NCBI GenBank assembly: GCA_965205215.1
Contig: OZ242041.1
Span: forward strand, 1,152,001-1,216,000
Direction: 5' to 3'
DNA from: Nitrosopumilus sp.
Lineage (GTDB): Archaea > Thermoproteota > Nitrososphaeria > Nitrososphaerales > Nitrosopumilaceae
Length of the DNA stretch: 64,000 bases
The position numbers and the translations under genes were made by a program. Under the pieces are notes generated by a model that was given only the letters and a program-made list of their open reading frames with translations, did no database searches and was not told the origin of the DNA. Positions 818 to 58,604 of the stretch are shown here, piece by piece. Positions within the stretch are counted from its first letter, which is position 1. The number at the start of each line of letters is the position of its first letter.

Positions 818-3800
818 ATGACATTAAATACGCAGGCCGCGCAGACGTGCGGCTCGCGCAGCAGGCGGGGCTGCCGCGCCAAGACGAGCGGGAGCGGCGC
901 GAGGATCCTGCTGCCTGCCCCAAGCGTGATTATGATTATGGCAGTGGCGGCAACGGTGGCCCTGGCAGCAACGGCCGTAGCGGCCCTGACATACGACGCG
1001 CAGGAGCCGCACGAGGCCATCCGGGAGACCTTGGACGTGAGCCGCGCCGCGTACGCGCAGGGCGTCGCGGGCGTCGCCGGGCACGTGGTGATAAACGAGA
1101 TAGACACAAACCCGCCCGGCAGCGACACGGCAAACGTCGCAGAGTGGGTGGAGCTGTACAACCCCACGTCCGAAGCAGTCGAGATAGGCGGATGGCAGAT
1201 ATCCTCCACCACGGGACTCAGGAAGGCCATGACAATACCGGAGGGGACCAGCATAAAGCCGGGCCAGTACCTGACGTACACGTACGAGCGAATATGGTTT
1301 GCAGACGTGGGCGAGACGGCGGAGCTGCGCGACGGCGACGGCACCGTAATACACAGCACTCCGAGAATTTCCGATACGGCAGACGACTCAAAGTCGTGGC
1401 AGCTCCTATACGACGGGTACTCGTCTGGCGACAGCGCCCTGGACTGGAGGCTCCACACGTCGACGCCGGGGTCCTCAAACGGCAAGATTCCGCAGGCGGG
1501 ATCCGCGGAGCAGCTTACAATCACGCTGTCCACGGACCGCGAGTCGTACAGCTTTGGCCAGACTGCCACCATAAACGGCGCCGTCTCGGAGAGGAGGTAC
1601 ATCGAAAAGCCGTTCTTCACGACAGAGTCGGTCACGCTTGAGATAAGCGGGCCCGGTTACAGCGAGACGGTCACGATGTACCCCGATGCGAACCTCGAGT
1701 TCTCGACCCTGCTCATACTGCAGCAGGTGCGCGGGATCCAGGGCGGCACGTACGAGTTGTCGGCCCAGTATTCCGGAGCGTCCGCGTCGGCCTCCTTTGA
1801 GGTGGGGTACGAGGAGGTGGAAGGCGCGGCGCCCCTAGACGACAGCATTACGATAACTGTAGACAGCACGACGTACACCCCCGGGCAGGAGGTCGTCGTG
1901 TCCGGCACCGTCAAGAGGGCCGTCCAGTTCGCCACGTTTGACGTTACGGTCGTGGGCCCCGACGGCAGTATAATATCGACCGGAAGCCTCGGCCCCGTAA
2001 ACGGCAGGGTCGGGACGTCCTTTTTGCTCAGCGCGGTGAACCCCGCGTACGGCACGCACACCATACACGCCTCGTACGCCGGCAAGAGCGCCACCGCCTC
2101 ATTTGAGGTCGTCGCCGAGCAGCGGGTGTCTGAGCGCATAACGCTGACATCCGACAGTCCCGCATACGAGCCGGGCCAGTCGGCAGTGATAAGCGGCAAG
2201 ATCAACAACGTCTGGGCCGCCGCGCTAGACCTGAAGATCGTGCAGACGCGGCAGGGCTCCGTGCCCGACAGCAGCACGGGCAGCCACACCGGATTCAAGA
2301 GGGGGGAGCTGCTGCACGTGGCAGGCGACGGCTCCTTCGAGTACACGTTCCACATACCAAACAGCACGCAGAGGCTCGGGGACTACTGGGTTACGGTTGC
2401 AGGCGGCGGCGGGACGGCGGGAATAGTGATATCGGTAGTCGAGGACGCCGACTCGTTCGTGGCAGTCAGCGGCCCGCTCACCATCACGACGGGCAGCCCC
2501 GTATACGAGCTCAACGAGCCCATAGTGTTCACGGGATACGCCACGGACGCATACACGGGAACCACCACCGAGTACGCCACCACGTCAGTCAGGATACACA
2601 TAACGGACTCCGACGGGTCGCCGCTGCGCAGCCAGCTGGAGGGAGACGACGTAAGGAGGGGCTTTGGAGGCGGCATGGAATCCACCATATACGAGGCAAT
2701 CGCGGTGCCAGAAGAGTCCGGCAGGTACACCGCGACCATAAACGCGCTGCCGAGCATCTTTGGGGCAGGAAACTACACGGCGGTCGCGACATACAAGGGA
2801 CTCACGGCCACGACGGAGTTCTCCATCTCCGACCAGTACGACATATCGGAGCCGGAGATCACGACGGACAAGGAGGTGTACGGGCTGGGCGAGACCGTGA
2901 CCGTCAACGGGGCCCTGCCGGGAAGCGGCACAAAGCACGTGTCAATCACGCTTACAAAACCCGACGGCTCGACCATACACAGCAGCGCGCCGGTAGTGGG
3001 GCAGCACTTTTCATGGGAGTGGGACGCGCCAAAGGCCGAAAGGAAGCACACGCTCAAGGAGGGCGAGCTGCGCGGCAGCAAGATGACCGTGTTTGGCGCG
3101 TACACGATAAAGATCTCGACCAGCTCGCACAACGACATAGTGTACTTCAAGGTCTCAGAGGACCCCCTCAACGACTCGCTTGCAAAGGAGCCGCTGATCG
3201 TCACCACCTCAAAGGCGCTCTACAAGCCCGGCGACGACCTGGAGGTCTCCGGCATAGTGACGCTGTACGAGCACGGCGGGGATGGCCTCAGGGCGCCGCT
3301 CAGGGTCGCCATAACGGTGAGCCAGGACTCGTTCCCATATACGAAGATCTACGAGGCGTGGGTCTATCCGGACAACGGCGGCGAGTTCTCAAGCGAGTTT
3401 GACCTGCCCCTGGGCGTGTTCAAGGAGGGATCCTACAAGGTCTCGGCCCTGTACGGGCCCGCCAAGACAAGCGTGCTGTTCCGCATGGCAAACGACTACG
3501 TGGTGAGCTCAAGCGATCCCCTCTCCATGAGCGTCTCGACTGACGCCGAGACGTACCATCCCGGCCAGACGGTTACGATATCGGGCGGGCCCAACAAGAT
3601 CATATACGTGGAGGACTACAGGGTCAGCGTGTACAAGACGACGGGCCAGGAGATAGACTGCGGCACGGCGGCCTGCGGCGACCACAGGGGCCCCGTAACA
3701 AAGATCAAGCCCGGCCCCACCGCCTCGTTCGTGCACCACTTTACGATACCGGAGGGCAGCGGCGCGGTAGGCACCTACGAGGTGACGGCCCAGTCGACAA

Positions 3801-50206: not shown

Positions 50207-51954
50207 TAGCGTGTTGCATAATTCGTCGACCTCCTTGGCAAAATGCCATCCTCGCTTGACGATCACAGGGTTGCTGTGGCGCGCGCCAGGTGTGCCGACC
50301 GCATTGCAGGGCCCCCGCCGCAACGTCTTGTTTCTGGACGAGGTTCGTCGGCTGCAGGCTGCCCGCATGCGCATGGCATGCGGCGGGAGGCAGGCGGCGA
50401 TCGGCCTGGGCCGGTCAGGCCTCCGCGGCCGCCTCCCTGCCGACCCGTAGCATCGTGTTGTACGTGCGGATCTTCAGCCGGATCTCCTGGCGTATGTACC
50501 CCAGCTTCCTTGCCATTACGGAGCCGCCGTACGTCCTCTTGAACGCCGATATGACAATCTCTACAAGCCACCGGGTCCCGTAGCCGACTAGCTTCTTCCA
50601 CTCTTTGCGGTTCCTTTCGCGCTCCGCCTCGTCCATGGCGGCGTACTCCTCGGCCGTAACGCCGGATCCTCCCCCGAGCTGCTCGAGCACCGCCTCGGCC
50701 CGCGCCCTGTCCGTTCCGTCCGCCCTGCAGTTGGCGTTCTTGCGGACGCGTATGCGCGTCCGGATGCCCAGCCTCCTGCACTCCGAAAAGATCTCCCTGC
50801 TGTCGTACCCGCCGTCGGCCATCAGCGTGATGGCGGCGTACGTCCTGCCGCGGCTGTTTTTCTGCCCCGAGACCGCCTTGCGCCTCCCGTCAGGATCCAC
50901 CCCCATGTTTGCCAGGGCGTTTTCCAGGAGCGGCCTGAACACGGTGGGCTCGCCTACCGAGTCGTCCGTGAGCTCGAACGCGACGATCTCCAGCGTCTTC
51001 TTGTTGATCATTATCGTAAGCCTGAAAAAGCCGCGCTTCAGCCTGTGCGTGACGCGCAGGTACTCGCTGCGCACGGCGGGCGTCATACCGGTACCGTCCG
51101 GGACAAGGTCTATCGCGACGTCCTCGCATGTGACGCCTGAGAGGCTCCCCCCTATGGGCGCGTCCTGGGAGCTGATCCTCCTGAATATGGTGGTGAACTC
51201 GGGGCCCCCGCCGTCCGCGAACGCGGCCGCCATGCCCTCGCACCCCCTAAAGTCGAGCTGCAGCCTGTCGCGCAGGAACGATATGGCCGCCACCATGCTG
51301 TGCGTGTACTTGTAGGGGCGGCCGCGCTTTTTGTGGTTCATGGCGGCCAGCTCGGCGTCGTTCCGGCGGAGATCGGCCAGCTGGCGCAGCACCCCGAAAA
51401 GGTGCCTTGCCCGTCCCACGTACCTGGCGTTGGTCCTGCGCCAGGATTCCTGCCTCGGCCTTTTCCTGCCGGGCCTCGCCCTTCCCGCCTTGCTCCCGTC
51501 CGCGTCCCCGCTCACGCCGCACCCGCCGCACCCGGCCCCGGGGGATGCCGCAGCGCGCAGCTGCCGTTAAATTCGCGCCCCGTGACATGCAGTTGCATGT
51601 GCGTTGATCCCATCATTAGTTAGCCGGTGGGATCTCGCATCGTGCATATTTAACCACCCGCGCCTGTCAGCTGAAGCCGCACCCGCGGCACGGCCCGTTA
51701 AATACGGCCCCGGACAATACGTGTCGGTACCCGCAGGGCGTCAAGGCGCGTAACGCGCCGTGCCTTGCCCGTACTCTCCGCAGGCCTGGAAGCGCGGCTT
51801 GCTTGCCGCCTGTTGCCGGGGAACCGTACCGGCACCATGGCGCGGAGGCACGCAGTACGTCCTGTTCGGTTTGCGGGGCAGCCGAGCGGCCTGCACCATG
51901 CTGCAGAGCCGCACCCTTCGAGCGGGGCAGCTTGGGGAATTATGCAACACGCTA
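50207..51954 (-). mobile_element. Complete IS5-family insertion sequence (IS903/ISH1-like), 1748 bp
   Basis: Perfect 18-bp IRs TAGCGTGTTGCATAATTC (50207-50224) and GAATTATGCAACACGCTA (51937-51954); 8-bp TSD CACGAATC (50199-50206, 51955-51962). Confidence 0.93.
50415..51515 (-). CDS. IS5-family DDE transposase
   Basis: GRPYKY, FRGCEG, PEFTTIFRR, PDGTG, ADGGYD, YGTRWLVEIVISAFK (YREK). Confidence 0.92.
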   Translation of the reverse strand: MSGDADGSKAGRARPGRKRPRQESWRRTNARYVGRARHLFGVLRQLADLRRNDAELAAMNHKKRGRPYKYTHSMVAAISFLRDRLQLDFRGCEGMAAAFADGGGPEFTTIFRRISSQDAPIGGSLSGVTCEDVAIDLVPDGTGMTPAVRSEYLRVTHRLKRGFFRLTIMINKKTLEIVAFELTDDSVGEPTVFRPLLENALANMGVDPDGRRKAVSGQKNSRGRTYAAITLMADGGYDSREIFSECRRLGIRTRIRVRKNANCRADGTDRARAEAVLEQLGGGSGVTAEEYAAMDEAERERNRKEWKKLVGYGTRWLVEIVISAFKRTYGGSVMARKLGYIRQEIRLKIRTYNTMLRVGREAAAEA

Positions 51955-52318: not shown

Positions 52319-53485
52319 ATGCCCCCGGACAGCAGCGGCAGCATTGACGATGATGATGTCGGCGGCGACGACGACGGCGCGCGGGGCGACCAGAACCAGG
52401 GCGACTACAACGACGCGGGCCGCCGCGCCGATGACGACAGTGGCGCCGCCGCCGGCAGCAGCAGCAGCAGCAGTCCCGCGCCTGCCGCCCTGACGCGGCC
52501 GTCCCTTGCGCGGCAGCTGCTCGGAGTCCCCCACGCTGCCCTCATATCGGTGACGTTCGGGCTGTTTCTAGCGTCCTTCCCGATGGGGGCGTTCGTGGTC
52601 TTTGCAAGCGGAATAGGGGGGGACATCAACTACGACCTGCCGCTGACGCACCTGAGCCTGTTTGAGGGCACGGGGCTGCACCTTGCCCCCGCGCCGGTAT
52701 CAGTCGGCGACGCGTTCGCGATACTGTGGCTTGGGTACCTGGTTGCGTTTGCAACCGCATGCATGGGCCCCGCCCGCGGGTTCATGGGCGCCATATCTGA
52801 CATCATGGCGGGCCGGCGCACGGCGCACCGGTTTGACAACTACATGCTGGGGGTCATAACGTGGTTCTCCATACTGGTGCTTGCGTCAATTGTGATAACG
52901 TCAGCGCAGGACTATGCGGGCATAGAGACCGCCCCGCCCGAGTCTGAGAACGACCTTGTGGAGTTCTTTTACGTGTCGCTTGCGCCCATCGTGGAGGAGA
53001 CCGGCTTTAGGCTCGTGCTTGTCGGGATACCCGTCTTCCTGATGTATTCCGGGCGCTTCTCGCTCCGGTACGTGGCGCGCTGCCTGTGGCGCCCCGACGC
53101 GGTCGGCATCGACGATCACAGGAGGGCGCTTGTGGTGATCGTGGCAGTCGGGCTCCTGTTCGGCTTTGCGCACATAGCGCTGGGCGAGCCGTGGAGCGAG
53201 GGCAAGTTTGCGCAGGCGGCCGCCGGCGGAATCATTTTGGGGTGGGTGTACGTCAGGTACGGGTTTGTCGCGTCGGTCCTAGTCCACTGGGCCACCAACT
53301 ATTTCATATTCTCGCACGCCCACTTCATATCGCAGACGCACCTCGTCCCGCTGGAGGAGGCATTCTCCCACTCCATGATGCTTTCTGTGGAGGTGATACT
53401 GGCCGTGTGCGGGATCCTGTCGATAATCGCGATAGTCATGTCGTCAAGGACGGCCGGCCCCTTGCGCCGAGACCGCCCCGTCTAG
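52319..53485 (+). CDS. CPBP/CAAX (Abi) family intramembrane metalloprotease
   Basis: APIVEETGFR, FGFAH, HWATN; acidic N-terminal extension. Confidence 0.88.
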   Translation: MPPDSSGSIDDDDVGGDDDGARGDQNQGDYNDAGRRADDDSGAAAGSSSSSSPAPAALTRPSLARQLLGVPHAALISVTFGLFLASFPMGAFVVFASGIGGDINYDLPLTHLSLFEGTGLHLAPAPVSVGDAFAILWLGYLVAFATACMGPARGFMGAISDIMAGRRTAHRFDNYMLGVITWFSILVLASIVITSAQDYAGIETAPPESENDLVEFFYVSLAPIVEETGFRLVLVGIPVFLMYSGRFSLRYVARCLWRPDAVGIDDHRRALVVIVAVGLLFGFAHIALGEPWSEGKFAQAAAGGIILGWVYVRYGFVASVLVHWATNYFIFSHAHFISQTHLVPLEEAFSHSMMLSVEVILAVCGILSIIAIVMSSRTAGPLRRDRPV

Positions 53486-54037
53486 CGCCGTCCTGAGCCA
53501 CTTACACCTGTTGCGGATGGTAACCTCCGTCACGCCGGCGGCCTCGGCCACGTCCCTCCGGGTCTTGTTCTCGCCGCACTCTGTGCACGCCATGTACAGC
53601 GCGGCCGCCGCCAGCCCCATCGGGTCCTTCTCGGCCGATACCTTGTACTGCTCGGCAAGCTTTAGTATCTTTGCGGCGTGGCGCTTTGTGCGCTCGGAGA
53701 GCTCCGCCTTGCTTGCGATCCTTGAGGTGCACTTTATGGGATCGGCTACGGGCATCGTGATGTCAAGCCCCCTGAGGAGCAGCCTGTAGCACCTTGCGAT
53801 GTCCTTGCGCTTTATGTTGCTTGCCTGGCCTATGTCCTTGAGCGTGCGGGGCGTCTCCGTGACGCGGCACGCCGCGTACAGCGCCGCCGCCGCTATCCCC
53901 TTCGGGTCCTTCCCGGCCGGTATCCTGTGCTGCTCGGCGAGCTTTAGTATCTTTGCGGCGTGGAGCTTTGTGCGCTCGGAGATCTCCGCCTCGCTTGCGA
54001 TCCTTGAGATGTACTCTGTGGGATCGACTACGGGCAT
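53444..54037 (-). CDS. Headless chimeric TFB cyclin-core paralogue (partial duplicate; could be a pseudogene)
   Basis: Near-identical to the 3' half of the adjacent TFB; 197 open codons; homology extends up to ~54096. Confidence 0.7.
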   Translation of the reverse strand: MPVVDPTEYISRIASEAEISERTKLHAAKILKLAEQHRIPAGKDPKGIAAAALYAACRVTETPRTLKDIGQASNIKRKDIARCYRLLLRGLDITMPVADPIKCTSRIASKAELSERTKRHAAKILKLAEQYKVSAEKDPMGLAAAALYMACTECGENKTRRDVAEAAGVTEVTIRNRCKWLRTALDGAVSAQGAGRP

Positions 54038-54098
54038 CGTAATGTCAAGCTCCCCGAAGGGCAGCAGCCTGCTGCACCTTGAGATGTCCTTGCGCTCC

Positions 54099-55040
54099 TC
54101 ACGCCGAGACCATCCCGTCTAGCGCCGTCTTGAGCCCCTTGTACCTGTTGCGTATTGTAACTTCCGTCACGCCGGCGGCCTCGGCCACGTCCCTCTGGGT
54201 CTTGTTCTCGCCGCACTCGGTGCACGCCACGTACAGCGCGGCCGCCGCCAGCCCCATCGGGTCCTTTCCGGCCGATATCTTGTGCTGCTCGGCAAGCTTT
54301 AGTATCTTCGTCGCGTGGCGCTTTGTGCGCTCGGAGAGCTCCGCCTTGCTTGCGATCCTTGAGATGCACTTTATGGGATCGACTACGGGCATCGTAATGT
54401 CAAGCTCCCTGAGGAGCAGCCTGTAGCACCTTGCGATGTCCTTGCGCTTTATGTTGCTTGCCTGGCCTATGTCCTTGAGCGTGCGGGGAGTCTCCGTGAC
54501 GCGGCACGCCGCGTACAGCGCGGAAGCTATGAGGGCCGATATCGACCTCCCCCTGACGAGCCCCTTCTCGAGGGCCTTTCTGTATATGTGGGCCGCCTTT
54601 TCGATGACGGCCTCCCCGACTCCGAGCTTGTCCTTTAGCCTGTCAAGCTCGCTGAACGCCTGCCTGAAGTTGCGGTCGACCGGCTCGTGCACCTGGCTCC
54701 TGTTGTCCCATGTGCGCAGCCTCTCGATGGTGCTCTTCATGGACGCGGCCAGCGGTTTGCCGGTGGCGTCCCTGTTTTGGGGGTTGATGATGGTTGCAAG
54801 GCCCATGTCGTGCATGGCAAGGGACGTGGGTACGCCGGCCCTGCTCTTGTTCTCCCCCTCGTTTGAGAACGAGCGCCACTCGGGGCCCGACTCCTCTGCC
54901 TTCTCGGACACCACGTAGCCGCAGCTGCCGCAAAAGTTCTCGCCCGTGCTTCCGTCCGTGATCATGGTGCCGCGGGCGCACCTTGGGCACCTCTCCTTTG
55001 CATTGATCGAACCTGCTATCTCCATTACCAACGCCTCCAA
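54099..55040 (-). CDS. tfb: Transcription initiation factor IIB (TFB)
   Basis: CPRC..CGSCG zinc ribbon, GPEWRSF, HDMGL, two cyclin repeats, GVTEVTIRNRY. Confidence 0.97.
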   Translation of the reverse strand: MEALVMEIAGSINAKERCPRCARGTMITDGSTGENFCGSCGYVVSEKAEESGPEWRSFSNEGENKSRAGVPTSLAMHDMGLATIINPQNRDATGKPLAASMKSTIERLRTWDNRSQVHEPVDRNFRQAFSELDRLKDKLGVGEAVIEKAAHIYRKALEKGLVRGRSISALIASALYAACRVTETPRTLKDIGQASNIKRKDIARCYRLLLRELDITMPVVDPIKCISRIASKAELSERTKRHATKILKLAEQHKISAGKDPMGLAAAALYVACTECGENKTQRDVAEAAGVTEVTIRNRYKGLKTALDGMVSA

Positions 55041-55105
55041 AGCTTTTTATTCTACTCTGTAATGTTAATTTACCAACTATATAAGTATTTTGTAGACTTT
55101 TTAAG
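55041..55105 (-). promoter_or_regulatory. AT-rich TFB promoter region with TATA box
   Basis: CTTATATA on the minus strand (~55077-55084) in an AT-rich patch between the divergent tfb and xpb. Confidence 0.55.
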
Positions 55106-55193
55106 TGTGGAGTCATGGGCGAGGCTTGCGCCGCCCCGGCCTAGTCGACGGGCCCCCGCATACCTATAACTGCCGCCCCGCCATGTACGGTGT

Positions 55194-56771
55194 ATGCACC
55201 CGCGCCTCGTCTTTGACCACGGGACGATACGCATCGAGAACGCCCGGATGCTGGAGATCCCGGATGCCAGATATGACGAGCGCAGCGGGACCCTGCGGGC
55301 GTACGGGATGAGCTACTCCGGCGTGCTCAGGTATTTGGAGGAAAGTGAGATTGCGCACGACGACGAGGTGAGGCAGTACGAGGCGATGCCCGCGCTGTAC
55401 GCGGAGATGCAGCTGAGGGACTACCAGCAGGACGCGGTCGACAGCTGGCAGAGGGCGGGGATGAGGGGGTGCGTGGTACTTCCGACGGGCTCGGGCAAGA
55501 CTGCAGTCGGCATGCACGCCATCTGCAGGGCCGCCGTGCCCGCCCTCGTGCTGGTCCCCACAATTGATCTGCTGCACCAGTGGACGGAGTTCCTGCGCGG
55601 CAATCTGCGCGTAATGGGATATGAGCGCGATCGTGAACATGGCGGCGACGGCGACGGCGACGTGGACGGTGACGGCGACGCGAACAATAGTAGCGGCGGC
55701 GGCGGGACGGTTGCAGTCGGGCGGCTCGGCGGCGGGTACGACGACATCCGGGCTGTGACCGTATCCACGTACGACTCCGCGTACGCTAGGGCCGCGGAGC
55801 TTGGGAACAGGTTCGGACTCCTGGTGTTCGATGAGGTACACCACCTGCCGGCCCCGGGCTACAGGCTGGTTGCAGAGCAGTGCATCGCGCCGTTCCGGCT
55901 GGGGCTGACTGCCACGCTTGAGCGCGAGGACGGACTGCATTCCGAGATCCCGAGGCTGGCCGGCGGCGTCGTGTACACGAGGGGCTCGGGGGAGCTTGCC
56001 GCCAAGAGGCACCTTGCCAAGTATGACGTGCAGAGGATACGCGTGCGCCTGACAGACGCCGAGCAGGCCGAGTATTCCAAGTGTAGGTCCAAGTTCCTCG
56101 CGGGACTGCGGGGGCTTGGCATGAGGACCGAGTCCATGTACAACCTAAAGCGGCTCATCCTCATATCAAACCGCAGCAAGGGGGCCCGCAGCGCGTTGCT
56201 TGCAAGAAACAGGGCAAACGAGATTGCATTCAATGCGGCCGAGAAGACGGCCGAGCTTGGGCGGATACTGGCCGAGAACTGCGGGCGCGCCACTGCGCGC
56301 GGCCGGGACGCCCCCGTGGAGGCCCCGGGGGCGAGGAGGAAGACCATAATATTCACGCAGAACAACAAGATGGCGCACTCCATATCCGACAGGTTCCTCA
56401 TACCGATAATAACCCACAAGACCGCAAAGGCCGAGCGCAGGGACATACTTGACGGATTCAGGGACGGAAGGTACGTGGCCGTCGTCACGTCCCGCGTGCT
56501 TGACGAGGGGGTCGACGTGCCCGACGCGGAGCTCGGCGTCATCGTGAGCGGCACGGGGAGCGGCAGGGAGATGGTGCAGAGGCTTGGGAGGCTGCTGCGC
56601 CCAAAGCGGGACGGCGCTAGGGCCAGACTGATCGAGATCGTATCTGAGGAGACTCGGGAGGTGGGCAGCAGCGCAAGGCGCACCGCGGCGCTGCGCCGCA
56701 GCGCGGCGGGGCGCACCGCGGGGCGCCGCGCCCAGGGACAGGGGCAGCGCCGCGGGGGGAGGGGCCGGTGA
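55194..56771 (+). CDS. xpb: XPB/Rad25-like SF2 DNA helicase
   Basis: LRDYQ, LPTGSGKT, DEVHH, GLTAT, VLDEGVDVP, QRLGRLLR. Confidence 0.9.
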   Translation: MHPRLVFDHGTIRIENARMLEIPDARYDERSGTLRAYGMSYSGVLRYLEESEIAHDDEVRQYEAMPALYAEMQLRDYQQDAVDSWQRAGMRGCVVLPTGSGKTAVGMHAICRAAVPALVLVPTIDLLHQWTEFLRGNLRVMGYERDREHGGDGDGDVDGDGDANNSSGGGGTVAVGRLGGGYDDIRAVTVSTYDSAYARAAELGNRFGLLVFDEVHHLPAPGYRLVAEQCIAPFRLGLTATLEREDGLHSEIPRLAGGVVYTRGSGELAAKRHLAKYDVQRIRVRLTDAEQAEYSKCRSKFLAGLRGLGMRTESMYNLKRLILISNRSKGARSALLARNRANEIAFNAAEKTAELGRILAENCGRATARGRDAPVEAPGARRKTIIFTQNNKMAHSISDRFLIPIITHKTAKAERRDILDGFRDGRYVAVVTSRVLDEGVDVPDAELGVIVSGTGSGREMVQRLGRLLRPKRDGARARLIEIVSEETREVGSSARRTAALRRSAAGRTAGRRAQGQGQRRGGRGR

Positions 56772-56777
56772 CCGGTA

Positions 56778-58604
56778 ATGCTGCCGTCTGAGCTGCTGCG
56801 CGCCCGCACGAGCCGGGGCAGGATATACCCCATGTTCTGCAGCGTGGGCGGCGCCGATACGGGGGCGGGGGGAGACGACGACGGCGGCCCCAAGGGCGGC
56901 GCGTCTGCTGCTGCTGCCGCTGATACCGAGCGCGAGCTTGCCTCCGCACTCATCTCAAGGTTCGAAGATGCGTCTGCAAGCGGCACGAGCCGGGGCGAAC
57001 TGAACCGTACGATATCGGACATGGAGCCCGACCATGACTACAAGCTCGTCAGGGGCCTCCGCACGCTGCTTGAGCGCAGGTCCTCGTTTGTGACGCAGAG
57101 GCCGGGGTCCTGCCCGCCGGGGCTTGACCCGTACGACGTGAGGCGCGCCCTCTTCACCGAGTCGTCCGCGGCGGGACTTGCCACGTCCTCTGCAAAGAGG
57201 GACGCGATAATAAGAAAGGCGGCCGACGCGTGCGGCATCCAGCCGCCCGACGTCCCGCGCGTCATGTGGGCCGACATGGAGGAGAACCAGACGCTGGAGC
57301 GCTTTGATGCAATCTCCGTCGGGGACCTGCTGCTGTGGTACAACATGTCGCTTGCGCAGACCCTGTTGTTTGGCTGCACCAGGATGGAGTTTTACGTCAG
57401 CGAGGGCCCGTACTGGAAGGATATACTGAGGGCGGTAAAGGCGCGCGGGCTCATGTACGTGCTGGAGCCGGGCGACGGCGCGGGTAAGAGGAAGGGCGGC
57501 GGCAGCGGCAGTAGCAGCAAGGAAGGCAAAGCCCCACTGCGCTGCATACTTGAGGGGCCGCTCAGCGTCTTCAAGATGACCACCAAGTACGGCACCGCCT
57601 TTGCGCGCCTGCTTCCGGTGATAACCCGCACCCCGTCGTGGTGGATTGACGCCACAATCTCAAGAAAGACGCCGGGCGGGGTGAAGCTGTACCGATTCGA
57701 GATGGCAAGCGACTCCGCGCATGCCCACCTGAGGGGCGTCGAGTACGGGCCGCGGCATGGAACCGACGCGGACCCGCAACAGTACGACAGCGCAGTCGAG
57801 CAAAAGTTTGCCGACATCCTGTACACGCATCTGGGGCGCGGCGACCCGCTCGGATGGCGCATGACGCGGGAGCCCGGGCCGCTCATATCCGGAAACAAGG
57901 CCATGCTGCCGGACTTTGTGTTTGAGCGGCTTGGGCGTCGCGTCTACCTTGAGATCGTCGGGTTCTGGACCCCGGACTATATACGCCGAAAGTTCGCAAA
58001 GCTGCGCGACATGCTGCTGGTCGAGCCCGCCGCCGCCGGCAAGGGCGGGCCCGGGGCGGGCCCGGAGGCCGGAGGCGCGGGCGGCATCGATATGCTCGTG
58101 GGAATCGACTCCTCGCTCCTGTGCTCGCAGGCCTCGGAGGTTGCCGGGCTGCCAGGCGTCTTTATGTTCGACAAGGACGTATCGGTAAAGCCCATACTGG
58201 ACCACCTCGGCAAGATTGACGCCGAGCTGGAGCGCGAGGCGGCCTCCGGCGCGCGGCTCTCGCCGAGCGACATCGGCGCCGACGTGATTGCGATACGGGA
58301 CGTTGCAGTCAGGCGTCTGGTGCCGGAGGGCGCCGTGCCCGGCATGTTCGAGGCGTCCGCGCCCGGGAGGTACGTCCGGGCGGGCCCGTGCATGGTGTCG
58401 GCGGCAAAGGTGTCGGAGATGTCCAAGGCGATTGACGGCGGCCCCGAGGGGTTTGTAGACGCGTGCCGCATACTGGCAGACGCAGAAATCCCCGGGGACT
58501 GCCACGCCGAACTCTTGTCCTGTATGGGCTACGACGTTGTCTGGCCCGACCTTGATCCGAGCAACGCCAGAATACAGAAGAGGGCAGCATCCGGAGGGGA
58601 CTAG
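56778..58604 (+). CDS. bax1: DUF790 / Bax1 endonuclease
   Basis: MLPSELL start, YNMSLAQTLLF, GPLSVF..KYG, YDSAVE, PDF..EIVGFWTPDY; adjacent to xpb. Confidence 0.88.
   Translation: MLPSELLRARTSRGRIYPMFCSVGGADTGAGGDDDGGPKGGASAAAAADTERELASALISRFEDASASGTSRGELNRTISDMEPDHDYKLVRGLRTLLERRSSFVTQRPGSCPPGLDPYDVRRALFTESSAAGLATSSAKRDAIIRKAADACGIQPPDVPRVMWADMEENQTLERFDAISVGDLLLWYNMSLAQTLLFGCTRMEFYVSEGPYWKDILRAVKARGLMYVLEPGDGAGKRKGGGSGSSSKEGKAPLRCILEGPLSVFKMTTKYGTAFARLLPVITRTPSWWIDATISRKTPGGVKLYRFEMASDSAHAHLRGVEYGPRHGTDADPQQYDSAVEQKFADILYTHLGRGDPLGWRMTREPGPLISGNKAMLPDFVFERLGRRVYLEIVGFWTPDYIRRKFAKLRDMLLVEPAAAGKGGPGAGPEAGGAGGIDMLVGIDSSLLCSQASEVAGLPGVFMFDKDVSVKPILDHLGKIDAELEREAASGARLSPSDIGADVIAIRDVAVRRLVPEGAVPGMFEASAPGRYVRAGPCMVSAAKVSEMSKAIDGGPEGFVDACRILADAEIPGDCHAELLSCMGYDVVWPDLDPSNARIQKRAASGGD

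Follow-up and report, generated by a model that had tools for sequence, protein, structure and literature searches.

In two studies, the work of the archaeal general transcription factor TFB is divided between a core that binds TBP and the BRE and a Zn ribbon that recruits RNA polymerase (PMC6212726, PMC13502027). [quoted passage not shown] An AF2 model of ORF2 had a pLDDT of 84.2 and TM scores of 0.77 to 0.83 to 1AIS_B and 1D3U_B (0.83 to 1D3U_B, at 36% identity); by sequence, ORF2 matched 1AIS_B with an E value of 5e-30. The model predicts a complete TFB core fold for ORF2. TFBc, however, was cut down from a full gene in the laboratory, whereas ORF2 is a natural ORF with a chimeric first repeat, and its recognition helix carries Y-to-C and G-to-W replacements at invariant sites.

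Partial tandem duplicates and unitary pseudogenes can exchange sequence with their parent by gene conversion. ORF2 resembles such copies in its lack of constraint, a sharp-edged conversion tract, and two-way exchange, but so far has no disabling mutation, and in a sister species the copy has altered the sequence of its parent, a general transcription factor of the essential type. Multiple full-length TFB paralogs are of the same family and also born by duplication. The three others in the studied genome (L002, L003, and L005, with 73%, 60%, and 31% identity) are complete, lie at separate loci, and include the Zn ribbon region within the match, whereas ORF2 is headless, partial, in tandem, and without an upstream region of its own. 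The truncated TFB paralog TFB3 of Sulfolobus is likewise a naturally incomplete member of the family. Two reports place TFB3 in the DNA damage response (PMC6101594, PMC6101591); it is a conserved, regulated gene, whereas ORF2 is known here from sequence.

The locus is best read as a decaying tandem duplication that is hard to lose, exchanges sequence with TFB, and evolves as a leftover rather than as a working gene (probability of about 0.6).

Layout of the TFB locus

The window is the whole 64,000-nucleotide stretch of Nitrosopumilus DNA analyzed here. G000 denotes the studied genome, a single 2,098,239-base contig; G097 is a sister species, and G146 is a single-copy relative used as the reference. 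In G000, a TFB gene encoding a Zn ribbon (PF08271) and two TFIIB cyclin repeats (PF00382, twice) by Pfam is followed, after its stop codon, by unit U2, the end of repeat 1, and repeat 2 (Table 1).

Table 1. Features of the TFB/ORF2 region, in window positions
Feature	Position	Strand	Details	Source
Full-length TFB gene	54099..55025	(-)	308 aa from ATG; 313 aa from upstream TTG at 55040	ORF list
TFB stop	54099-54101	(-)	TGA	
AT-rich region upstream of TFB	55041..55110	(-)	TATA-like CTTATATAG at ~55078-55086	
Proximal repeat copy A	54102..54521	(-)	TFB's final 140 codons (end of cyclin repeat 1 and whole repeat 2)	
Relic of convergent CPBP gene's 3' end	54102..54122	(+)	Reads RRDHPV and TAG	
Proximal junction	54096..54101	(-)	TFB stop TGA and GGA (old flank), then U2 at once	
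Unit U2	53867..54096	(-)	Stretch RKDI...AAAALY, with 3-nt in-frame insertion	
Chimeric joint	53867..53886	(-)	20-nt ALYAAC microhomology common to repeats 1 and 2; U2 to end of repeat 1	
Distal repeat copy A'	53465..53884	(-)	At site of ancestral TFB 3' end	
ORF2	53444..54037	(-)	197 aa from first ATG	
Six-codon extension of ORF2	53444..53464	(-)	QGAGRP and stop	
Convergent CPBP / Rce1-like membrane protease gene	52319..53485	(+)		Pfam PF02517

An initial annotation had described a rearranged copy of the TFB 3' half directly after the TFB stop, with about two dozen mismatches, and a BLASTN comparison of the region against itself bore this out. Copies A and A' (54521-54102 against 53884-53465) form a gapless 420-nt alignment with 24 mismatches (94.3%). 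Unit U2 (54096-53867) aligns with 54448-54222 (89.1%) and with 53811-53585 (87.4%), and the repeat matches, with E values of 0 and 1e-79, are far above the chance level. U2, 230 nt long and lying between the two 420-nt copies, is the most diverged unit and is older than the others; it holds the end of repeat 1 helix 5, the linker, and repeat 2 helices 1 to 3. At the ALYAAC joint, repeat family D4 has four copies spaced 282, 355, and 282. Tandem Repeats Finder reported nothing in the region; the periods (282, 355, and 637) and the rearranged order fall outside what it scores.

The frame containing ORF2 is open from 54118 down to a stop at 53444-53446, and its first ATG, GTG, or TTG is the ATG at 54037. 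Its translation runs from the first half of cyclin repeat 2 through ALYAAC into the end of repeat 1 (RVTETPRTLKDIG...) and then a full repeat 2, with no stop in the 197 codons, just as the initial annotation had laid it out (joined at ALYxAC). The first cyclin fold is thus a chimera of repeat 2 helices 1 to 3 and repeat 1 helices 4 and 5, which leaves only half of the repeat-1 surface. Pfam found PF00382 in two stretches (E = 4.3e-39) and no match to the Zn ribbon PF08271 in the 224-codon open frame, whereas the adjoining TFB has one; the frame begins within cyclin-repeat sequence and includes no N-terminal Zn ribbon, B-reader, or B-linker. The KTQRDVA-to-KTRRDVA change singled out earlier, which replaces a putative BRE-contacting Gln, is present at codon 109 of the repeat, and the conserved HTH recognition helix (TEVTIRNRYKxL) is not kept, reading RNRCKWLR in G000 ORF2 and RVWCKRLK in G097 ORF2. 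The QGAGRP extension exists because the ancestral TFB stop became CAA in the distal copy (53462-53464), a change also found in G097.

The convergent CPBP gene shares its final 42 nt with the end of ORF2, whereas its overlap in single-copy relatives is with the end of TFB itself. The order SUI1-CPBP-TFB is syntenic in loci L008, L009, and L021 to L024. The relic RRDHPV and TAG was duplicated along with the TFB end and keeps the ancestral spelling of single-copy relatives, in which the CPBP C termini read ...SLRRDHPV (G146 and G085).

Gene conversion and substitution patterns

In G097, copies A and A' have no differences in nt 1 to 368 and 13 in nt 369 to 420 (P ~1.6e-12 if differences were evenly spread), and the identity over 368 nt is due to gene conversion. 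Few or no differences separate the three U units of G097. The G097 and G000 TFBs differ at four residues, all inside the repeat and all shared with G097 ORF2; at least one of the changes in the G097 TFB, T239A, is also present in G000 ORF2. At the level of sequence, these patterns demonstrate that G097 ORF2 has been repeatedly overwritten by TFB and has written into TFB through gene conversion.

Substitution counts in TFB itself show strong purifying selection at the sequence level: copy A differs from G146 by no nonsynonymous and seven synonymous changes. The branch leading to A' in G000 carries 14 nonsynonymous and 5 synonymous changes, where the neutral nonsynonymous share is 0.73 (p = 1.0), and U2 differs from the G146 unit by 12.5 nonsynonymous and 6.5 synonymous changes. 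Between G000 and G097 (dS of ~0.11 to 0.15), omega is 0.046 for TFB, 0.22 for CPBP, and 0.63 for ORF2. The initial annotation had proposed comparing dN/dS between copies, and the neutral 14:5 branch, together with the higher omega of ORF2, answers in favor of decay; judged by these counts, ORF2 in G000 shows no detectable protein-level constraint. Six replacements in ORF2 (E90G, G136E, Q160R, Y178C, G180W, and K182R) fall at residues invariant in 28/28 full-length TFBs, with G136E in the GKDP turn and Y178C and G180W in the recognition helix.

Seventeen codons of G097 A' lie outside the conversion tract. They carry eight nonsynonymous and no synonymous changes, which is not significant against neutrality (p = 0.12), and over the same unconverted codons, omega between G000 A' and G097 A' is 3.3, with changes in and after the HTH recognition helix. 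The 8:0 pattern could reflect positive selection for a new way of reading DNA.

No stops or frameshifts were found in ORF2 in six sequences from two species, and U2 has a single indel, which keeps the frame. However, a frame of this kind stays open in ~36% of simulations with 38 random substitutions, so the lack of stops is uninformative by itself.

A leftover copy or a core-only factor

The initial annotation had weighed a core-only factor, a recoded four-cyclin TFB, and a decaying duplication. The last is favored by the neutral branch, the six changed invariant sites, and the missing AT-rich promoter region; the second is rejected, as detailed below; and the first is retained through its intact ORF in two species and its TFB-core-like model. 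Measured as a pseudogene, ORF2 is a partial copy lacking the parent's 5' part and upstream region, and its substitution pattern in G000 is neutral. Disabling mutations are absent from all six sequences, although conversion from TFB can mend damage, and in G097, only 52 nt escape conversion and inform a neutrality test. Measured as a working TFB/TFIIB, ORF2 has the two cyclin repeats and lacks the Zn ribbon, the conserved recognition helix, purifying selection, an AT-rich promoter region of its own, and a conserved start codon.

Several observations pull against decay: the frame is open in 6/6 sequences and survived a speciation, the sole U2 indel preserves it, the predicted fold is complete, the unconverted recognition-helix stretch shows the 8:0 count and an omega of 3.3, and an RNA-library contig carries the TFB-stop/U2 junction. 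Tandem duplications are as a rule lost fast. ORF2 would persist because it is trapped rather than needed: homologous deletion would be selected against, as TFB would be left with the decayed distal recognition helix. The case suggests a simple reason for the persistence of remnants, in which any homologous deletion would hand a damaged end to an essential gene. A small archaeal genome has here kept a partial tandem duplication through a speciation, and an essential general transcription factor has clearly evolved in concert with a copy of itself that is decaying. As a gene, ORF2 is most likely irrelevant, and annotators should leave it out of TFB paralog counts.

Signals for expression were sought in base composition. 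GC content is 0.49 in 55041-55193 versus 0.62 to 0.64 in the coding parts, with runs of AT-rich 8-mers upstream of TFB, and CTTATATAG is a putative TATA-like element. By composition, 55041..55110 is the only promoter-like region of the whole TFB/ORF2 unit; a composition test found no AT-rich promoter region for ORF2 in 54038-54400 apart from conserved codons. The start is not conserved either: in G000 it is an internal Met after a 61-nt spacer, in G097 a new ATG after 17 nt. A candidate TATA-like element ~120 nt upstream of the ORF2 ATG, AAGTTACAATAC, which a cluster of synonymous changes in TFB recognition-helix codons would have created, was rejected as unsupported, being a poor match to a TATA box and absent from G097.

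If ORF2 is expressed at all, its transcript would probably start at the TFB promoter and read through. RNA-library runs X18, X19, and X20, which contain relatives at 95 to 99% likeness, were searched as assembled contigs. One contig (X18 record 4) carries the TFB-stop/U2 junction, and read-through transcripts may therefore exist. No assembled contig of the three runs was placed on 53202-54101, which is no sign of ORF2 silence. Past the junction, X18 record 4 takes a U1-V1-like path, which may reflect a strain with homogenized copies, a less complex structure, or a chimera of the assembly graph.

From such a transcript, ORF2 would be translated as a working core-only TFB paralog and act as a decoy or blocker at TBP-promoter complexes, a reading that we consider unlikely. 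Its two cyclin folds would bind these complexes, possibly with altered reading of the BRE, and it would recruit no RNA polymerase because it has no Zn ribbon, B-reader, or B-linker. This would fit the division of labor between core and Zn ribbon described in PMC6212726 and PMC13502027, as well as the two TFIIB repeats with the Zn ribbon missing, the confident TFB-core-like model, the ORF intact in six sequences of two species, the ATG that G097 has acquired 17 nt past the TFB stop, the replacements clustered in and after the recognition helix where conversion escaped (8:0, omega of 3.3), and the RNA-library contig crossing the junction. Against it stand the neutral pattern along the entire G000 copy, the changes at six 28/28-invariant residues (including G136E, Y178C, and G180W), a chimeric first fold with half of the repeat-1 surface, the missing promoter region, and a start codon, junction, and N terminus that differ between G000 and G097; gene conversion, moreover, accounts for the likeness between copies. 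If this reading were nevertheless true, ORF2 would set a precedent as a naturally Zn-ribbon-less TFB core that acts on promoters; searches of open-access text turned up no other example. It is more speculative still, and quite improbable, that in sponge-associated ammonia-oxidizing archaea a headless TFB core from a read-through transcript serves as a natural TFB competitor with a diversifying recognition helix and also as a conversion partner feeding amino acid changes into TFB.

Origin, recoding, and assembly

The leftover copy favored here has a history that, as far as its substitutions tell, predates the speciation of G000 and G097. Their distal copies have in common the stop-to-CAA change, Y127C, and a change at site 410, and their U2 units have in common TTC and GAG. 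The distal changes postdate a common duplication because the proximal copies retain the ancestral stop. Shortly before the split, a unit that ran from RKDI... to just beyond the stop and took in the final codons of the convergent CPBP gene would have been duplicated, and misaligned repair or recombination at the 20-nt ALYAAC microhomology would then have put in the end of repeat 1 and a further unit. The pre-speciation arrangement, the conversion with the real TFB, and a duplicated unit that includes the convergent neighbor's 3' end all go beyond the initial annotation.

Independent duplications in G000 and G097 at a hotspot are improbable, and the question of function would be the same either way. 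The proximal junctions do differ, G000 joining TGA and GGA to GCGCAAGGACATC, while G097 retains ~25 nt of the old flank and begins U2 36 nt later. This is outweighed by the shared derived states of the distal copy, among them a stop-to-CAA change that takes two base changes, by the shared U2 states and the same chimeric ALYAAC joint, and by the ancestral stop retained in the proximal copies.

It is highly improbable that programmed frameshifting or stop bypass joins TFB and ORF2 into one 531-aa TFB with four cyclin folds. The arithmetic proposed earlier is correct: the G000 ORF2 frame is open from seven codons ahead of the TFB stop, and skipping the T of the TGA, a +1 step, gives 531 codons from the TTG start (313 + 218). 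However, the frame of ORF2 relative to TFB is +1 in G000 but −1 in G097, where the stop is TAG rather than TGA and is followed by 17 different nucleotides, so no shift site, direction, or context is conserved; TFB also ends at the same place in single-copy relatives. A recoded four-cyclin TFB, as the initial annotation had also envisaged, was rejected because the frame relation and junction sequence differ between the two species.

An assembly artifact, whether from stitched strain variants or from a repeat that was collapsed or expanded, can be dismissed: the copies, 94% alike, could mislead short-read assemblers, and depth in run X4 goes up over the shared parts, with two bins (53605-53818) lacking a listed contig, but an exact contig from another run crosses 54025-54192 and a second contig crosses 53078-53555, independent assemblies of G097, of a 2.3-Mb contig, and of further MAG records show the same chimeric order, and lineage-specific substitutions with a clear evolutionary pattern separate the copies. 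At the proximal junction, the first of these contigs (record 18 of run X4) has 0 differences and flank-like depth; the second extends from CPBP into the end of ORF2. Misassembly and stops in other strains had been named as grounds for abandoning the annotation; the junction contig from an independent run and the G097 assembly speak against the former, and the six intact sequences against the latter.

The arrangement is genuine: a partial tandem duplication, specific to this lineage, that took in the 3' part of TFB. Exact patterns of the G000-type proximal junction and of the chimeric ALYAAC joint each matched 0 records in metagenome_contigs, where the exact identity required makes this no sign of absence, and the joint pattern matched one record in genome_contigs, a search from which own-genome records were possibly left out. 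In six relatives inspected (G146, G085, G081, G002, G018, and G147), TFB is single and lies directly against CPBP. Among the 151 genomes of the genus searched, only G000 and G097 had two adjacent matches on one contig. Relatives with the same arrangement, which the initial annotation had suggested looking for, do exist: besides G097, four further protein records have the chimeric ORF, and one of these comes from a 2,316,901-base contig.

Structure and distribution of a partial TFB duplication

The complete TFB gene of this genome (G000) is followed by an open frame containing a second ORF, ORF2. BLAST of the region against itself aligned the 3' end of TFB (proximal copy) with a distal copy inside ORF2 over 420 nt, with 24 mismatches and no gaps, exactly matching the repeat with about two dozen mismatches described in the initial annotation. 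Between the copies lies U2, an older unit that is 89% and 87% identical to the corresponding parts of each (U1 in the proximal copy and U3 in the distal copy). Translation beyond the TFB stop bore out the order proposed earlier (start of repeat 2, ALYxAC joint, end of repeat 1, full repeat 2): U2 encodes RKDI..., a linker, and helices 1 to 3 of repeat 2, and is followed by the common ALYAAC motif, the end of repeat 1 (RVTETPRTLKDIG...), and a full repeat 2 with a 6-codon tail. A 20-nt ALYAAC-coding string, present in four copies at spacings of 282, 355, and 282, is the obvious microhomology at the chimeric joint. Pfam detected two TFIIB repeats in the ORF2 frame and no Zn ribbon in the downstream open frame.

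Features of the TFB locus and its neighbours (window positions)
Feature	Position	Strand	Description
TFB gene, complete	55025-54099	minus	308 aa from ATG; Zn ribbon and two TFIIB repeats
Frame after TFB TGA	to 53444	minus, +1 relative to TFB	open for 224 codons
ORF2	first ATG 54037	minus	197 aa
Proximal copy	54521-54102		420 nt
U2	54096-53867		230 nt
Distal copy	53884-53465		420 nt
Relic of CPBP end (RRDHPV + TAG)	54102-54122	opposite TFB	in proximal copy; spelled as in single-copy relatives
CPBP N terminus	52319-52560	plus	first ~60 residues low-complexity, acidic, Ser- and Ala-rich
DDE transposase gene	50415-51515	minus	PF01609, E = 1.4e-13
XPB/Rad25-type helicase, then DUF790 protein	55194-58604	plus	helicase with XPB damage-recognition domain; divergent from TFB

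The duplicated arrangement is real and not an assembly artefact. The window is part of one single 2,098,239-base contig, and a 168-nt contig from X4, a DNA run under a different study code, spans 54025 to 54192 with 0 differences and thus links the TFB stop with the beginning of U2. Another X4 contig, of 478 nt (53078 to 53555), connects the neighbouring gene with the end of ORF2, and X4 depths at the bridging contigs are similar to those of the flanks. A protein search recovered an ORF2 homolog (P0002; 206 aa, 84% identical, 99% coverage) on a 2,316,901-base contig, with three further records of 196 to 207 aa in its 90% cluster. When 151 genomes of the genus were queried with P0002, two adjacent matches on one contig occurred only in G000 and a sister species, G097. 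The comparison with related genomes proposed in the initial annotation thus found the arrangement in G097, along with the P0002 cluster records. The exact chimeric-joint pattern had one matching record in a species-representative collection.

Origin of the copy and exchange with TFB

In the six single-copy relatives inspected (G146, G085, G081, G002, G018, and G147), the gene order is SUI1-CPBP-TFB, and there is direct overlap between the TFB stop and the 3' end of the convergent CPBP/Rce1-like protease gene. In G000 and G097, CPBP is overlapped by ORF2 instead, so the distal copy occupies the place of the old 3' end. Because the proximal copy keeps a relic of the CPBP end, the duplicated unit must have extended past the TFB stop. 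G000, G097, and G146 are nearly equidistant in the N-terminal part of TFB and in CPBP (5.2 to 6.3% for CPBP), with G085 and G081 at ~10%. The acidic N-terminal stretch of CPBP varies in length and sequence among these five genomes and is missing from CPBP of the more distant G002 and G018. The G018 ortholog of TFB (L008:1468-2381) consists of two overlapping ORFs (1468..1887 and 1812..2381); the break in this complete 1.9-Mb genome is due either to a frameshift or to a sequencing error.

The distal copies of G000 and G097 have in common a stop changed to CAA (two base changes), Y127C, and a change at the second base of codon 137, all absent from the proximal copies and from every single-copy relative, and their U2 units have TTC and GAG in common. 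These derived states favour a single duplication before the G000/G097 split. The proximal junctions differ (TGA+GGA, then U2 from GCGCAAGGACATC in G000; TAG, ~25 nt of old flank, then U2 from TTCAGGGAGC in G097); later remodelling is the simplest account, though not a full explanation.

Gene conversion is evident in G097, where the 420-nt copies have 0 differences in nt 1 to 368 and 13 in nt 369 to 420 (P ~1.6e-12 if evenly spread). U1 and U3 are identical there; the 5 sites at which U2 departs from them all lie in its first part. The four residues distinguishing G097 TFB from G000 TFB (K227R, T239A, K243E, and V266A) all lie inside the repeat and all occur in G097's own ORF2. G000 ORF2 has T239A as well, and V266A regenerates the ALYAAC found at the chimeric joint. 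These shared residues show that sequence has flowed, at least in part, from the copy into the essential TFB gene. In another, related strain, SDT, a one-codon deletion, and VADPIEC are common to TFB (P0004) and ORF2 (P0122), which come from equal-sized contigs; an indel has therefore passed between copy and essential gene. In P0004, this deletion affects helix 5 of the first cyclin repeat (RCYRLLREL).

The G097 conversion tract ends just ahead of the codons with N125V, R126W, and Y127C in the distal copy, and selection against their entry into TFB would account for this edge. At the same edge, TFB recognition-helix codons of both duplication-bearing genomes (54153 to 54164, and ~1408 to 1450 of locus L019) carry clustered lineage-specific synonymous changes: three within 10 nt, all to A, in G000, and sites 372, 375, 376, and 378 in G097. 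The ORF2 copies retain the ancestral synonymous states.

Selection, expression signals, and the status of ORF2

The dN/dS comparison suggested in the initial annotation separated the two copies. With the 24 differences polarised using G146, G085, and G081, the G000 distal copy has 14 nonsynonymous and 5 synonymous changes within 140 codons, which fits neutrality (expected nonsynonymous share under random mutation of the repeat sequence, 0.73; p = 1.0), versus 0 and 7 for the TFB copy compared to G146. Polarisation with G002, G018, and a paralog placed all 11 polarised nonsynonymous changes in the distal copy. For the G000 U2, comparison with the G146 unit gives 12.5 nonsynonymous and 6.5 synonymous differences. 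The G000/G097 omega values are 0.046 for TFB, 0.22 for CPBP, and 0.63 for ORF2, and 0/13 differences in the unique N-terminal half of TFB are nonsynonymous. Six ORF2 replacements (E90G, G136E, Q160R, Y178C, G180W, and K182R) fall at residues invariant in 28/28 full-length TFB rows of alignment A2. In the best-supported reading, the partial tandem duplication is decaying, as one of the options raised initially had it, and trades sequence with its parent gene. Homologous deletion between the repeats would join the intact 5' part of TFB to the decayed distal recognition helix, leaving harmless removal to rare non-homologous deletions; this damage to TFB may be why the copy persists.

TFB lacking its N-terminal part competes in vitro with full-length TFB, and ORF2 could be a core-only TFB, a reading that we consider unlikely, although several observations speak for it. 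ORF2 is intact in all six sequences, has survived a speciation, and has a sole indel that is in frame. However, 36% of simulated copies given 38 random substitutions lacked a stop, so the open frame carries no weight. The stretch escaping conversion in G097 has 8 nonsynonymous and 0 synonymous changes, not significant versus neutrality (p = 0.12), with omega of 3.3 between the G000 and G097 ORF2s. ORF2 is also predicted to fold like known TFB cores: AlphaFold2, run with 31 relatives, gave a model (pLDDT 84.2) that superposed on the Pyrococcus TFB core with a TM of 0.83 for 1D3U_B and 0.77 for 1AIS_B. The domain roles assumed here follow passages of PMC6212726 and PMC13502027, in which binding of TBP and the BRE is assigned to the TFB core and recruitment of RNA polymerase to the Zn ribbon. 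Neither a natural Zn-ribbon-less TFB nor a report on the present locus was found in open-access text and preprints.

The sole AT-rich, TATA-bearing stretch lies upstream of TFB (GC of 0.49, versus 0.62 to 0.64 in coding parts). No promoter-like AT-rich region occurs upstream of ORF2, where every AT-rich 8-mer falls in conserved codons. Since the TFB strand has no run of at least 4 T after the gene (53200 to 54200), TFB transcripts probably read through into ORF2. In RNA library X18, one contig (depth 4.4) joins the TFB end, its stop, and the U2 start with one mismatch, where DNA carry-over is possible and the later path is ambiguous. In G000, the ORF2 start is an internal Met, 61 nt beyond the TFB stop, and in G097 it is a new ATG 17 nt beyond that stop, with frame offsets of +1 and −1, respectively; these differences rule out a conserved recoding device and with it the four-cyclin TFB initially raised as one option.

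The DDE transposase gene lies ~0.5 kb from SUI1, near the rearranged locus. The helicase and DUF790 genes are presumably the archaeal XPB-Bax1 pair.
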